DNA of 64,000 nucleotides, taken from the NCBI GenBank assembly GCA_964270895.1, contig OZ185440.1; one strand, given 5' to 3'. The translations under genes were made by a program, and so were the position numbers. Below are positions 2,540-57,891 of the stretch, piece after piece (the stretch's first letter is position 1; each line of letters starts with the position of its first letter). The notes below the pieces were generated by a model. That model was not told where the DNA came from, made no database searches, and worked only from the letters and a program-made list of their open reading frames with translations. Origin of the DNA: Podarcis filfolensis. Taxonomy: Eukaryota.

Positions 2540-3396
2540 CAACATACTTACTCTAGAAGAAAGCATCAAGTTCATGAGCAGGGGTGCAAAATGGCTCCCC
2601 AAAGGTGACATACAGCATTTGACCACTGTCAAATGTGTTAAGAAGCATCGCAATCTATTTTATAATCCCTTCCCCTACTTTGGAAACAGGAGCTGCGATC
2701 AAGCCATTCTTTTAGCCCTTGGAATTCACAATGTTGTCCTTAATGTGCATACATTGTAGTATTTCAGTGCTCGTGATAGAGCTTCCACTACATAGTAGCT
2801 TATATTTTCCAATCATCTTGAAAACTGATTTGAGAGTTAAATTGGACAGATGTGGTCCTCAACATGCCCATAAACTCTCTTGGATTAGAGCAGTGGGTAG
2901 AATTTAACACCCTGTTCTTTCATTTGTTCCATCAGCACAAACACTGCAGCTTGCCAGATGGAACCATCCCCCCTCTCCTCCTGCATTCTGTTCTGGGGAC
3001 TCTCCCATAGCTATTTTTTTTTGGGGGGGGAAGCCCCATTGTGCAAGCAGAAGACCTTGTTCAGGGCCTGGTTAGACGAATTCTGCCCACTGTCTTGTAT
3101 TTTGCATTTCACTTTTTAAAATAAAATAAAATGTATAAACAACTTGATCAAAATGTTCTCCATTCCAAGCAGCGTACTAATAAAAAGAAAACAGGTGAAA
3201 TCCCCAAAATAATTAAAAACAAATCTCAGCACTCTTAACAAACTACACTTCACAGGATGCTTTAGGAGAAGCCATGACAGTTTAAACAGGTTTAAGAGTG
3301 CTTTAAATGCACAGTGCAGATGGGGCCTTGCCACTCTGCAAAGTGGCACATATACTGCTGTAATGGTAATTTCAACTATGCTTCAGTAGGACTTAC

Positions 3397-3640
3397 CTAT
3401 GTGTCACTTTTATTAAGTTAGGGGCTGCATTCTCCGAAATGCTGCCTGTTCCACTGTATTCCTCCACATCCTTATCATCGTCTTCTCCTTCAGCATCTTT
3501 ATCATATTTGTTCTTAGCCGTGATATTTCTGGGTAAGACGGGCTGGTAGCCATCCTCCAAATCCAAGTTGTACACCTCTCCATCAAGCTCAACAGCCACC
3601 GAACGAATTGAGCGACTCCGAATATAGCTTGCCTTGTATT
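3397..3640 (-). CDS. SULF2: SULF2 exon (hydrophilic domain, furin site): YKASYIRSRSIRSVAVELDGEVYNLDLEDGYQPVLPRNITAKNKYDKDAEGEDDDKDVEEYSGTGSISENAAPNLIKVTH(R)
   Basis: tccacag| ... |gtaagt; 244 nt. Confidence 0.95.
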
Positions 3641-4080
3641 CTGTGGAAAGGAGGACAAAACAGAGCTTGCCTTTCTCTGTCTTAATACAGCATATGTGGG
3701 TTTGACATGCAGGAAAGTGCTTGGAAAACTGACTCAGAGGTTAAGTCAGAAATGGCCAAGTTCTCTGACCCTGGGGAACACACTAATTCTTCAGATTGCG
3801 GTCTGGTTCCAGAGGTAAGAGACCAGCCCCTACAGATGTGGTCAGGTTTTATAATAAAATCAGCATTGCTGTGGAAGTCTTTGAGGTTATGGGGCACATG
3901 CCATTCAGTATGCTCAGGACATCACATGAAAATCAACATGGAAATATGGAAACATCTCTCTTATCCTACAACTCCAGCAAACAACTTTGTCTTCCTTACA
4001 AGTAAAACTCATCTATCTCCTACCACAATAACATTTGACAGGGTTGATAGAAGCCAGACAATTGCTTTAGTGGGCGAGAG

Positions 4081-47594: not shown

Positions 47595-47806
47595 TACAGA
47601 TAGGTAGCCGTGTTGGTCTGCCATAGTCAAAACAAAATTTTTTTTTCCTTCCAGTAGCACCTTAAAGACCAACTAAGTTAGTTCTTGGTATGAGCTTTCG
47701 TGTGCATGCATGGTACCTGAAGAAGTGTGCATGCACACGAAAGCTCATACCAAGAACTAACTTAGTTGGTCTTTAAGGTGCTACTGGAAGGAAAAAAATT
47801 TTTTGT
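47595..47806. mobile_element. Penelope-like element terminal fragment with inverted (foldback) pseudo-LTR
   Basis: 13-bp TSD ttattctagcaat at 47582-47594 and 47807-47819; 71-bp perfect inverted repeat; hammerhead motif inside; terminus ggtagccgtgttggtctg. Confidence 0.85.
47711..47752 (+). ncRNA. Minimal type I hammerhead ribozyme motif
   Basis: UGGUAC-CUGAAGA-A-GUGUGCAUGCACAC-GAA-AGCU-C/AUACCA: stem I UGGUA/UACCA, core CUGANGA and GAAA, stem II GUGUG/CACAC, palindromic stem III AGCU, predicted cleavage after C47746. Confidence 0.8.
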
Positions 47807-48121
47807 TTATTCTAGCAATATTATCCGCTGTTAGATGCATTAGCAGTGGCTGGTGAACTTAAAAAAAACCCATGGTTCTATAGAAAGTATTTCACAGGAA
47901 CAACACATTGTGTTTAATTGATTGCATTTTGTGCTTAATTGATTTTATAGTAAACTTATGCATGCTTGCATCTGTGACATATAGCAGTAAGGAAAATAAA
48001 ACCTACAGTTGGTATGTGGGGCAAAAACTATTTGCATCCCTCTTCCTAAAATGCCCCCCATTGTGCTGAAGCCAGGATGGGGTGGGGGGTTCAGTCATGC
48101 CCTGACAAAAATGAATACAGA

Positions 48122-48946
48122 TGTCAGGGAATCAGGAGCAGGAGCACTGGGGAGAAAGGAATTGGAGAGCGAAGGGGAAGAATCCGAGGGAAGCGTAGGG
48201 GACTATGACAGTGGCCCGAGATATTCCATGAGCTTCTCCAGCGAATCAGAAGATTCCCAGAAGGGGGCTCCGATGGTCAGGGCAAGGGGGGTCCCAGGGG
48301 GGACGCACCAGAAACAAGGAGCCAGAGGGGAACCCCAAAGCAGCAGTGGAGGATCGGGACCAGTTTCCCCACCAGAGCGTAGTGGGGGGGAAGAGTCACA
48401 TGTGTCAGGGCTAGCGTCTCCTCCGGAGGGGAGGGAGAGTAAGTCAGGGCTGACCACGCCTCCATCGGAGAGTGGGGGAATGGAGGGGAGGTCAGTTGCA
48501 GCTAGCCCACCCGAAGGGGGAAGCAGTGACAGCAGCAGTGAAACGGTTAGGAGGAAAACGGCTGGCTGGGCGCGCGCGCCAAGTTCAAATGTACAGGCGC
48601 GCGGGACAGCAGGAGACCCGGATGGGGAACCAGCTCCTAAAGCCCGCCGGAGGGAGGGAGAAGGCTCAGGGGAATCAGCGTCAGAGGAGGCTAGGAAGGG
48701 CGAGACCCCGGCGGGCAGGCGGACCCAGAGGAGGAAGGAGCAGCGGAAAAGGTGGAGCAAGGCTAGGGTCTTAAATTGGTGTACAGGGGGAGGAGATTCA
48801 GAAGGGTCATCAGCGGTCTGACAGTTGAGACGTGGGGCTGCGCGCTGCGGCTCTGGAAGTGAAACTGAACTTCAATAAAGACTTTTGTATTTAATTAGAA
48901 AGCAGCGTTGGTCCTTTGTGAGCTGGGACCTTGGGCAGCCTTGACA
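48122..48946 (+). mobile_element. Solo LTR A (825 bp), probably Gypsy-type
   Basis: Starts tgtcagg and ends ccttgaca; perfect 5-bp TSD acaga (48117-48121, 48947-48951); AATAAA at 48874-48879; CpG-rich, so probably young. Confidence 0.9.
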
Positions 48947-49186
48947 ACAGATAACAACTTTTTCTAAAAAGGTTAAAAATATGCGCTCCATCTTGCTGTT
49001 CTAGCTTCAGGCTTTGCTGCACAAAGCCTCCGGAGGGCACGGGGATGAAGACTCCCTGTGCCCTGAGGAGGCTTCGCGCAAAGCTAGACCAGCTTGAGGG
49101 AACGCTGTGCAGCTGTTTTTGTTTCCCCATGCATTTGGAGAACACCAATGATTTATGTTGTTGAATTCTAAGTGTGTTAACATGCC

Positions 49187-49595
49187 TGTGATGGGATGAT
49201 GAGCTGCTTGTGTGTAAAGTTTCTAGTCCCTCAGGGTTTGGCTAAGTCCACAAACCCCTGTCTGTAACGGAGCTCCATCAGCATGGCTCCGTCAGTCGCT
49301 GGCAGAATCAGACAGTGGGCGTTTACGGAATTTCTTCCAGCATAAAAGCTCCTTAACGGAAACACGCCTTCTGGACTCTCTGCGTGACAGTTTCCGGCGA
49401 GGAGTGGGTGTCCCTATAGGAGGTCCTGAAACCTCCCCACTGTTCTCGCTGGAATTGTCTCTGAGCCATCCTTCCGACTCACTTTCCCTTGGAGCTCTTT
49501 CTCTCCCCCTGCTGGTTCCCTCCTCAGCTGATAAGTCTCTCCCAACCTCTGGGAGCCCTTGCACCTCCGGTTCTTCCGATGACAGTTCCCTGACA
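49187..49595 (-). mobile_element. Solo LTR B (409 bp), related architecture
   Basis: Minus strand starts tgtcagggaac and ends cccatcaca; perfect 5-bp TSD atgcc (49182-49186, 49596-49600). The first 10 nt match LTR A (tgtcagggaa). Confidence 0.85.
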
Positions 49596-50574
49596 ATGCC
49601 TATGCAATTTTTATTACTGAATCTTTTTGTTGGCTGTTAAGGCTTTTTGCTTTGGGAATGGATATATAATGCACCTAAACCACTTTGTGGTTCTTTACAA
49701 TCAAAAGGTGTACAAATTTTATGAATAAAATAAAGTAATAAAATAAAATAAGCCAGTTGGAAATTCTGAAGAAGCTGAGTTAACCTGTCCCATGAACATC
49801 TTGCTAGCCCCCTAATGACCTGACCTCTTTCCCTTCATGCCAAGATCCTGCTTCCTTATCAGCTATGCCCTTGCTCCCACTTGAACGCCATGTTACTCTT
49901 GACTCCAGGAACAAGGAACAGACCTATCTTCCCAAGTCACATTCTTTCTCTTAAATGCTATCTCCTGGAAGGAGATACAGCCAACAAGAAAGAAAGAAAA
50001 ACGCAAGCAGATCATTCCTTTTGTAAATGTTTACATAAGGAGACTTTAGCAGAAACAGTTTTTTGACACCAATAAATCCTCACTGCAATGAGTCCTTTGT
50101 TTCCTCCTTCAATCTTCTTTTGCCACACCCTGTTCAAGAGTGGCCATGCTTTAATGCACCGATGACTCAGCCTGCAAGTGGTAGATCTTCCATAGACTAA
50201 ACCTTCAACTTTTAACTTGAAATGTTTACTTAAGTTGCTTTCCTGCCCAACTTCCAGAAGCACACAAGAAAATACAGGGACCTCTCTATATGGGTAGGGT
50301 CCTTTGGCACACAAGAACAACTCCTCACTGTCTGTATATATCAAATATGGAGATATGACCTTACAGCCTTAATATTTGGCTGCCTCTTATCACACAGGCA
50401 TTTTTCTAAAAGACAGCAGTCAATATTCATGCAGAAAGGGTCCTGGCAAAGTATCCTCTAGTCTTCAACAAAACCTGTTTTTCCCAATCATGTCCAGCAC
50501 GTTGCCAGTTGCAATTTTTTAATTTTTTAATTTTTATGAATGCAACAAGTGGGTACATATTTGTATACTAATTT

Positions 50575-55320: not shown

Positions 55321-56296
55321 TGTGTTCCTCCACCATCAAAATGAGTGAATAAAGAATGGATGAGAGACAGGTGCTGGGTAAACAATATGAGCCTCTAGCC
55401 CATCTGAGGTAGCACCTCTGTTTTAAAGTAATCAAGACTGGGCCAAGATAGTTTGAATCCCAAGACAGAAGTCCAAATGCTGTCACTTTTCACACACAAC
55501 TGCCCAAGTGGCGTTGAAAGGAACAGGAGTTGCGTAACAACATTCGTTTGATCTTGTGCAATTCTCACTCCTTCAAACAGGACTTGAGCAGAAGCACTTC
55601 CTGGTAGTAATGATGGATGAATCTGTCCATTTTGGTTTCTTTCAGTTCCTCTCATCCCCCCCCCCAATCTTATTTTCATCTAATCACATTCCACATCTGT
55701 TTGCAAATTTTGATAGCATTTACGTAAGTACTCATTTCTCCAAATAGACACATTTCTTACAAGCAATTTCCCCTTTCGTATGTTACTTTCACTAATTTTT
55801 GCACCTGCTCCCCTAATATATGCATTTTGTACACACCTGGAGAATGCATAAGAAAATTCAGAGAAGTGCGAATTTCAAATGAAAGTTATGTTTTGGCTCA
55901 CATATAGTTTCAGGAAGTGTCTGTTAGGTAGGTTGGCATTAAAATGCTAACCAGACCAAATTCCTCTGCCATCCGTCTGGCTGGTGGACTGTTGCATGGG
56001 TCACACCTGTCACACAGCTCCCTTGATCATGTGCCCAGTACCTATTTCACCTTATTTCATAGTAAGACACATAAAATATCTTCTGTCATATTCCTCATCC
56101 CAATGCCAGCAATATCCAATGAGTTTAATGGAGATCTGTCTCTGCATAAATGAAATCTGGGTTTGTCGGGCAGATGACAAGAGACTAGGAGAAGTTATGC
56201 ATTGTATTCCTTCAAGTGCCAAAGTTGATAGCCTCAGGAGTGAGCCATAGGGCTGAAAAACCTACCAGGGAAGCAGCTCACCTATTTCGGTCTTAC

Positions 56297-56536
56297 CTGT
56301 TCTATAGCCTGTGTTATTGAGGTACACTGCAAACGTGCGAATTTCATGCTGGGCCTGCCAAGACGGAGAGGAGCAGTTTTCATTGTTGGTGTAGGTGTTG
56401 TGATTGTGGACGTACTTCCCTGTGAGAATTGAGGAGCGGGACGGGCAGCACATAGGTGTCGTCACAAAGGCATTGATGAAGTGAGCACCTCCCTGTTCCA
56501 TGATCCTCCTTGTCTTATTCATCACTTGCATTGAAC
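56297..56536 (-). CDS. SULF2: SULF2 exon (catalytic N-terminus): [79 protein letters not shown]
   Basis: Acceptor ttcctcag|, donor |gtaaga; 240 nt. Contains the sulfatase CxPSR signature (Cys converted to formylglycine). Confidence 0.97.
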
Positions 56537-57891
56537 CTGAGGAAAGAAAAAGCACCACCGTGTCATAAAAAAGAGATAGAGAGCTGAAAGCTCATTGCTC
56601 TGCTTTGTCAGAAAGTTTCATTGCACGTAAGACAAAAGAAGCCACTTTATGATAAAACGAGCATAGTTGTTTTAACCAGCGAGGGCGGAGAAGGCTGTGC
56701 CAAATATCTCCTGCTGGTTCCATCTTCACAGTAGTGTAAGTAGCTTTGGAATTAAATCCCTCAACTTTTTTTAAAAGATCTTTTTAACCTTTCAGTTTTA
56801 GGACTTAATTGCCTCATACTGTGTATATATAGAATCCAAGGTCTGCTGAGGGAATCTGCTATTGCTCAGTATGGCTCTCAGGCTACCCCTGCGGCAGATT
56901 GTTAGCTACATTTTGTGTGTGTGTTTGTTTGTTTTTAAGCCGAACAATTTTCGGTGGTTTTTTAAAAAATAACGATGAAAACAAATTCTGTATCACAGTG
57001 AACCAGCAAAGAAAACAATTTGGGGCAAAGGAACTTCAAAACTATCACTTTGTTCTGATAATCATTGCTCTGTGAGTGGATTAAGGAAAGACTCAAGAGA
57101 TGTACTGTTCTAATCCTCTTCTAATGCAAACAGGGAAAGGGCCAAAACTCAGCTGTAATGCTTTGCATGCTGAAGGCACCACTTTCAATCCACTTTTACT
57201 TGGGGAAGGTTCAAGTAGCTGGTGATGGGGAAAATCTGTGCCCAAGACTCTGGAGAACTCAGCCAGTCAAAAAACACAAACTGGGTTAGAGGGACCAACA
57301 GCCTGACCTGATATACGGCAGCTTCCTAGGTTTTTAAATCACACAACTTTATTGACTTTTAGCACATAAGAGAAAATGCATAAGGTGGGTCCACAAGCGA
57401 AGGCGATCACAATGAACATACAGGTCTTGCTCATGCAACCTGAAAGGAGAGGGAGGGCGAGTCTTATGCTTCCATGCGCCCCATCCCCATGGAGGGAAGA
57501 ATATAGGAATCAGTGCAATAGAGTGTTTATCCATACCCTAAGTGAGATACTGCCTCCTCTTGGAGTATAAGTCCTTGCGTCCTCTCCCTACTTAACCCAG
57601 CCATTCCATTCACTTTATTTAATTATTCATCATCTCAGCCATTTTCATTGTTATTGAACTACTTTTAGTTATTAGGATCTGTTTTGCTTCCAATGGGAGC
57701 GACTCCTCTGCTGCTTGTCACTTCTGTGTTTTCCATCCAACAGGCATGAAATTGCCAGGGATTCTATGTATTTTCTATCTATCCAACAGATTAAGACCTG
57801 CTAAACTTTAGATGGGGGGGGGGGAGTCCTCGTTTTGTAGGCTGCTTTAAAAATACTCACAGGCTGATCCACAGATCACTCCATATACTAG

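Follow-up and report, generated by a model that had tools for sequence, protein, structure and literature searches.

In the stretch of Podarcis filfolensis DNA analysed here (64,000 nucleotides of contig OZ185440.1, hereafter the window), two solo LTRs carry open frames that are the last 232 (LTR A) and 100 (LTR B) Pol codons of two related lizard chromoviruses, and this LTR-coded Pol end is under protein-level purifying selection. The layout, in which Pol runs into the LTR, is a vertebrate parallel, new in the literature searched, to a design known from plants (CRM).

The 825-bp solo LTR A (48122..48946, +) has TG..CA ends, is assigned to chromovirus family A1 through the two-LTR element L061, and is flanked by the TSD ACAGA, at 48117..48121 (+) and again at 48947..48951 (+). 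The 409-bp solo LTR B (49187..49595, -) is assigned to family B1 through the two-LTR elements L062-L066, and its TSD copies, ATGCC when read on the + strand, lie at 49182..49186 and 49596..49600 (-). Both perfect 5-bp TSDs, as well as frames open from LTR nucleotide 2, are exactly as the earlier note had claimed. In LTR A the coded Pol C-terminus comprises 232 codons and a stop at 48819-48821 (48123..48821, +), an assignment based on the open upstream frame of copy L028 and on dN/dS; the coded stretch is acidic and Ser/Gly-rich, and the solo copy in the window is not connected to pol. In LTR B, 100 codons and a stop at 49294-49292 (49292..49594, -) form the place where a 1374-codon frame ends. 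The Arg-rich motif is found at 48705..48779 (+) in its family A version, which has L-x-W at the end and a last-40-codon dN/dS of 0.15, and at 49337..49411 (-) in its family B version, which ends in L-L-C-W. Recounting of the 25-residue motif gave the previously reported values, i.e., 11/25 residues and 29/75 bases identical between A and B, with 7 of the 11 identical residues recoded.

Among dinucleotide shuffles, no stop interrupted the frame in 6/3000 for LTR A and in 116/3000 for LTR B; chance is thus an unlikely source of the open frame of A, and the open frame of B is by itself weak evidence. The BLOSUM62 score of the motif (51) was matched in 3/1000 whole-protein and 5/1000 local shuffles, and at least 11 identities by themselves were reached in 32/1000 and 45/1000, respectively. 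Among the copies fetched, which were the best-scoring and therefore young ones, the position of the first stop codon is constant in 26/30 (A) and 30/30 (B). A Pfam search with the two window peptides matched no family.

The nature of these frames becomes apparent in full-length elements. Genome searches with the two LTRs yielded 2828 (A) and 1800 (B) candidates, of which the best 40 were scored, with 98-100% identity, and the pairing of LTR matches produced six two-LTR elements. Full-length A and B elements are of the Ty3/Gypsy type, with the order PR-RT-RH-IN between two LTRs and a 5-bp TSD. The B copy L064 contains gag and an overlapping pol of 1374 codons, which extends from the protease to LTR nucleotide 301 and includes the Pfam domains RVP, RVT_1, RNase H, H2C2, rve, SH3 and Chromo; past the chromodomain follow an acidic tail, the PPT and finally a stop identical to that of LTR B in the window. 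An intact long pol frame was counted by hand in 45 of the best 150 B matches. Within family A, the frame of the A1 element L061 is broken in the chromodomain region, the A1 copy L028 has 500/500 codons open upstream of the LTR, and the younger A-type subfamily A2 has one gag-pol frame of 1868 codons that enters the LTR in 116 of its best 150 matches (hand count). The register of pol across the PPT-LTR junction is t/GTC in families A and B, and the suggestion that the pol frame would continue in-frame over PPT-TGTCA is thus borne out for both by full-length copies. Because pol runs into the 3' LTR, the solo-LTR frames represent the end of Pol and no separate gene. Stops and frameshifts accumulating at the neutral rate, an internal frame ending before the LTR, and equally good alignments of shuffled sequences, which the earlier note had named as contrary outcomes, were none of them borne out. 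Among named proteins, Gypsy polyproteins of Podarcis muralis come closest, and in these the tail and the motif are kept. The single gag-pol frame of A2 (L260:578-6181) differs from the overlapping gag and pol frames of B (L064); gag-pol expression therefore differs inside one clade. A Podarcis vomeronasal receptor model (P0005) is fused to the RNase H-integrase region of such an element, which is likely an annotation artefact.

Selection on the peptide, proposed earlier from the recoded motif, was confirmed by pairwise Nei-Gojobori estimates on frame-blind DNA alignments of natural copies; the pairs share branches and are therefore not independent. In the LTR-coded part, dN/dS is 0.27-0.29 between A1 and A2 (p about 1e-11) and 0.28-0.47 in five B-type pairs, among them 0.28, 0.36 and 0.36 with the window copy and 0.39 with a truncated copy. 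Constraint is strongest at the terminal motif: the last 40 codons give 0.11-0.21 in most pairs, and 0 in the pair with the truncated copy. By comparison, dN/dS is 0.74-2.2 in the remaining two sense frames, 1.3-1.8 in the sequence past the stop, 0.04-0.10 in the integrase core and, as expected, 0.43-0.60 in the antisense frame that shares third positions. In all pairs compared, insertions and deletions within the LTR-coded part add up to a multiple of three. The 232-codon stretch of A is selected throughout, low-complexity parts included (0.31-0.33). In B, the stretch before the motif evolves almost neutrally in most pairs, with non-significant values of 0.58-0.77, and one pair gives 0.41.

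The same LTRs appear to prime their own reverse transcription. In 10/10 full-length copies, the sequence that follows the 5' LTR pairs over 10-11 nt with a site in the LTR, which lies 18-22 nt before the stop codon and shows compensatory changes between A1 and A2; this complementarity was equalled in 2-6 of 2000 shuffles. A tRNA-Met PBS was not found at this place, where the sequence has no initial TGG and pairs with the element's own LTR. In Tf1/sushi elements, the LTR site used for self-priming is the 5' end of the transcript (10.1101/2022.12.06.519325, in excerpt). The complementarity in A and B fits self-priming of the Tf1/sushi type, and transcription is accordingly predicted to start about 20 nt before the stop. 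In the window, both the self-primer and the start of transcription, at the U3/R boundary, are predicted at 48800..48810 (+) in LTR A, from LTR nucleotide 679, where 11 nt can pair with the PBS found in full-length A elements, and at 49306..49316 (-) in LTR B, from LTR nucleotide 280, with 1 mismatch to the PBS in the window copy. In A1 and B1, a TATA-like run precedes the predicted start by 24-31 nt. Since the self-priming site corresponds to the transcript 5' end, the frame would span all of the predicted U3 and end in R, and since transcription of a solo or 5' LTR would set in past the motif, the peptide would arise solely as the Pol end. An accessory ORF of the LTR is the less favoured alternative, given that the motif precedes the predicted start of transcription. 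A candidate polyadenylation signal AATAAA is present in LTR A at 48874..48879 (+); in contrast to A, LTR B is without AATAAA or ATTAAA past its stop (49187-49291, -).

Upstream of the PPT, B elements carry a chromodomain and A elements what is left of one, from which a tail of about 190 to 380 residues, depending on the family, extends to the terminal motif. In the AlphaFold model of B, the chromodomain is folded, and the tail has low confidence (pLDDT under 60) and three helices; the tail is thus predicted to be disordered with short helices. The aromatic cage, at three positions, is Y-W-Y in a further family, D, is reduced to W in B and is missing in A. Similarly, Pfam Chromo E values are 2.6e-14 for D, 2.7e-9 and 2.9e-10 for B and 0.024 for A, whose degenerate chromodomain fails the Pfam cut-off yet can be aligned to those of B and D. 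As of 2013, loss of two cage residues had been seen in plants only, according to excerpts of PMC3605345.

Between chromodomain and PPT, both A and B contain one or two segments that consist of F, an 8-9-residue linker rich in D/E/S/T, and FxGF; the segments are upstream of the LTR and hence outside the window. The first segment of B1 deviates in having L for the first F, and the linker of A is Ser/Thr-rich rather than acidic. This layout was present in 8/56 post-SH3 tails, all of them squamate-named or from the A/B clade, was not found in family D, and occurred in 5-42 of 20000 shuffles. The A/B segments agree with the layout of TND-interacting motifs (TIMs), namely, a helix, an 8-16-residue acidic linker and FxGF within a disordered region, and the FxGF of TIMs is described as essential for the known LEDGF/HRP2 partners in the part of PMC9987994 available. 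The likeness to TIMs is a lead, because the pattern was defined after the sequences were seen. Exons of the LEDGF domain occur at two loci in the host genome, and when this domain from the lizard was modelled in complex with a single FxGF segment, the score, 0.16 against a mark of 0.34, gave no verdict. The FxGF region had 0 matches among PDB sequences up to E 10, and two queries of the ESM Atlas gave no usable match. A phmmer search with the B3 tail against 1.84 billion representatives returned 3 matches, namely, two proteins of lizard-type elements and a low-complexity match from an oomycete; therefore, no wider distribution of the tail was found in that search.

In an integrase tree of 64 IN-SH3 rows, built without named references, A, B and the protein P0004 form one clade (100/98) and the squamate rows group at 92/85, with deep nodes lacking resolution. 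The C-terminus of P0004 bears a similar basic L-L-C-W motif, so that the hydrophobic L-x-W end is common to all three. Family D (L157-L176, 568-bp LTR) shows read-through in the same register over about 120 codons, with a different Arg-rich end; for the two pairs that diverge most, by about 11%, its dN/dS is 0.8-0.9. The end of D, R-R-S-A-R-L, accompanies a chromodomain with the full cage and presumably recalls nucleosome arginine-anchor motifs. An Anolis Gypsy family (P0048, P0055, P0182-P0209) is without a chromodomain and has one FxGF segment in an acidic tail, as well as what looks like a similar LTR junction, seen as protein sequence alone. This family groups with D; therefore, the FxGF motif may be ancestral in squamate elements, or convergent. 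A query of the Podarcis filfolensis genome with the Anolis tail gave no match.

The genomic distribution of young copies is skewed. In lists of the best 150 matches, which favour young full-length copies, a contig end is at most 500 kb away for 30/136 A2 elements on the 20 largest contigs and for 18/149 B1 elements, compared with about 2 expected (1.8 for A2) and with 3/143 elements of a Copia control that was chosen by Pfam score and is not age-matched (p 1e-7 for A2 and 1e-3 for B1); a BEL/Pao control search gave 1 match. On the other hand, about 80% of young A2 copies, 88% of B1 copies and both window LTRs are interstitial. The near-end insertions are largely separate events, with 24 distinct junctions among 26 readable ones (four others were unreadable). 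Segmental duplication was considered as the cause of near-end A2 pairs and rejected, as it accounts for 1, at most 2. On C9 and C12, two copies with identical LTRs occupy one shared satellite site; the elements are 99.6% alike and the flanks 89-93%, and identical LTRs within flanks that differ by 7-11% imply separate recent insertions.

By BLAST, 7 near-end junctions lie in A-/B-type elements or satellite, compared to 0/20 interstitial ones; tandem repeats are rare in the immediate flanks. An AT-rich satellite of about 500 bp was present in 7/20 samples from element-rich ends (beside A2 matches) and in 0/20 from the opposite ends, and A-type DNA in 11/20 and 2/20, respectively. The satellite has shorter subunits and HindIII sites (L210:103-9999, i.e., G000 C6 230-240 kb, and L201, L204, L206, L209, L215 and L216); on C6 its block spans only about 10 kb in the assembly, and A and B elements are found no more than 70 kb away. 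Lying near one end of several chromosomes, it is a candidate centromeric repeat. Lacertid chromosomes are mostly acrocentric (PMC10654178, in excerpt), and therefore the element-rich ends may be centromeric. In general, the skewed distribution of young copies speaks for biased targeting by the elements, without assigning that bias to the LTR motif. The peak density of young A2 copies, 3.5 per 10 Mb compared to 0.2-1.7 elsewhere, is on C19, likely the W chromosome, which also has many B and Copia matches.

Based on the results presented above, we lean, with modest confidence, towards a model in which the selected Pol-end frames complete a tail likely to tether integrase to chromatin and so to bias insertion. 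U3 would double as promoter and coding sequence, with translation predicted from the 3' LTR copy only. The tail would remain on integrase and act as its tether, and the FxGF segments together with the LTR-encoded Arg-rich L-x-W helix may supplement or replace the cage-less chromodomain. The FxGF segments might bind a reader of the TFIIS-N type, e.g., LEDGF/HRP2, and the basic terminal motif might engage nucleosomes or a factor close to the centromere, perhaps serving as an NLS as well; an NLS or chromatin-targeting function of the LTR motif is also what the earlier note proposed, and what we infer. The expected outcome would be a mixed pattern: about 80% of insertions would be dispersed, and about 20% would lie at chromosome ends that bear satellite and are probably centromeric, to which the tail likely helps to steer new insertions. 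LEDGF tethering predicts gene bodies as targets and fits awkwardly with a chromosome-end bias. In addition, the recognisable chromodomain of B could by itself cause a bias towards heterochromatin, and full-length elements may survive longer where recombination is low, mimicking an end bias. The main rival builds on these points and takes the motif as an integrase-terminal NLS only, with the end bias due to the chromodomain, to open target DNA or to low-recombination survival. We regard it as rather unlikely. The motif is indeed an Arg/Lys cluster past a proline at the integrase C-terminus, the majority of insertions are dispersed, and Ty1 has a C-terminal integrase NLS, to judge from reference titles in PMC3605345. 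Nevertheless, family A, which has lost all three cage residues, shows the strongest end bias, and Copia elements of the same genome are without such a bias. Moreover, the hydrophobic L-x-W end is kept in A, B and P0004, and a classical NLS has no need of it.

A tail that is translated and selected for a role outside integration, for example as an acidic protein released by the protease and acting in assembly, reverse transcription or anti-silencing, would agree with selection over the entire A stretch, low-complexity parts included, and with a range in tail length between families that suggests a spacer. Such a role seems improbable to us, given that the position past the chromodomain is the site of targeting determinants in CRM and Tal1 (excerpts of PMC3059260 and PMC11735389) and that the FxGF layout resembles ligands of chromatin readers. 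Least credible of all, and in our judgement very improbable, is that frames and motif are a by-product of T-poor composition or of a promoter element acting at the DNA level. T makes up 12-17% of the coded stretch, shuffles of B do remain open at the frequency given above, and T/A-rich codons are found at TATA distance from the predicted start; yet the third-position excess and a dN/dS far below 1 are confined to the pol frame. Subfamilies differ by synonymous changes where the L-x-W end is encoded, with TTG AAC in A2 and CTT CTT in B4, which argues against promoter-level constraint. A reading of these codons as a TATA box was rejected, because those of A2 and B4 encode the L-x-W residues without a T/A run.

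The elements considered here, for which an integrase tether is the preferred explanation, share with V-clade chromoviruses of the Tf1/sushi type (vertebrates, fungi) Gag, the order PR-RT-RH-IN-SH3-chromodomain, a 5-bp TSD, TG..CA ends and the self-priming site, and the gag/pol overlap of B is as in frameshifting members. They differ in that most of the 56 homologue tails stop shortly past the chromodomain, whereas the lizard tail passes the PPT and takes up U3 entirely, and in the eroded cage of A and B. In plant CRM elements, pol likewise extends into the 3' LTR (PMC3059260, in excerpt). Group A of CRM further resembles the lizard elements in its conserved terminal motif, in a canonical chromodomain that is missing or altered, and in the collection of elements at satellite (passages of PMC3059260 and PMC3605345). 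Unlike CRM, the lizard elements have an animal host, self-priming instead of tRNA-Met, a chromodomain fold upstream of the PPT and mostly dispersed copies; they parallel CRM, and no membership is claimed. With the TIMs of IWS1, KMT2A, JPO2 and JIL-1, the FxGF segments share a short helix, an 8-9-residue D/E/S/T-rich linker, FxGF and, at times, a tandem arrangement. Lentiviral use of LEDGF relies on folded integrase and not on a linear mimic; the lizard candidate differs in consisting of linear FxGF segments upstream of the LTR. The hijacking of LEDGF by lentiviruses is described in the accessible part of PMC9987994. In the centrophilic Copia elements Tal1/ALE4, the same place, integrase's C-terminal region, sets the insertion bias, and in Tal1 centromere targeting (PMC11735389, in excerpt); there the bias was proven experimentally, the elements belong to the Copia superfamily and have a plant host, and their likeness to the lizard elements is one of position.

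In the full-text literature searched (including excerpts of PMC3601003, PMC2774666, PMC4657000, PMC5559828, 10.1101/624023 and 10.64898/2026.09.17.752431), the read-through, the motif and the end bias are undescribed for squamates; older papers or Repbase may mention an overlap of ORF and LTR. A bolder and doubtful proposition is that squamate chromoviruses independently evolved the CRM design, with an LTR-coded tail directed to centromere-proximal satellite and an upstream mimic of LEDGF/HRP2 ligands gained as the cage decayed, and that they are still active. If true, this would be a centromere-seeking vertebrate retrotransposon with a motif-based tether, and its linear FxGF mimic would add another way of LEDGF tethering to the one used by lentiviral integrase. 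The choice of centromeric chromatin by retroelements is understood for very few, chiefly plant, elements. The lizard families, being young, abundant, varied in chromodomain and tail, and biased towards chromosome ends, offer a natural series for finding a targeting determinant in vertebrates. For annotation, this implies that many solo LTRs in such genomes hold orphan frames that are Pol ends and no genes.

Two further features of the window concern the surroundings of the LTRs. Exon-sized frames of sulfatase type match Pfam Sulfatase at 56265-56591 (-; E 2e-12) and DUF3740 at 3396-3740 (-; E 2e-16); therefore, both solo LTRs are likely intronic in a minus-strand SULF-type gene. At 47630-47808 there is a MITE-like palindrome, whose 81-nt arms are 98% complementary and separated by a 17-nt spacer.
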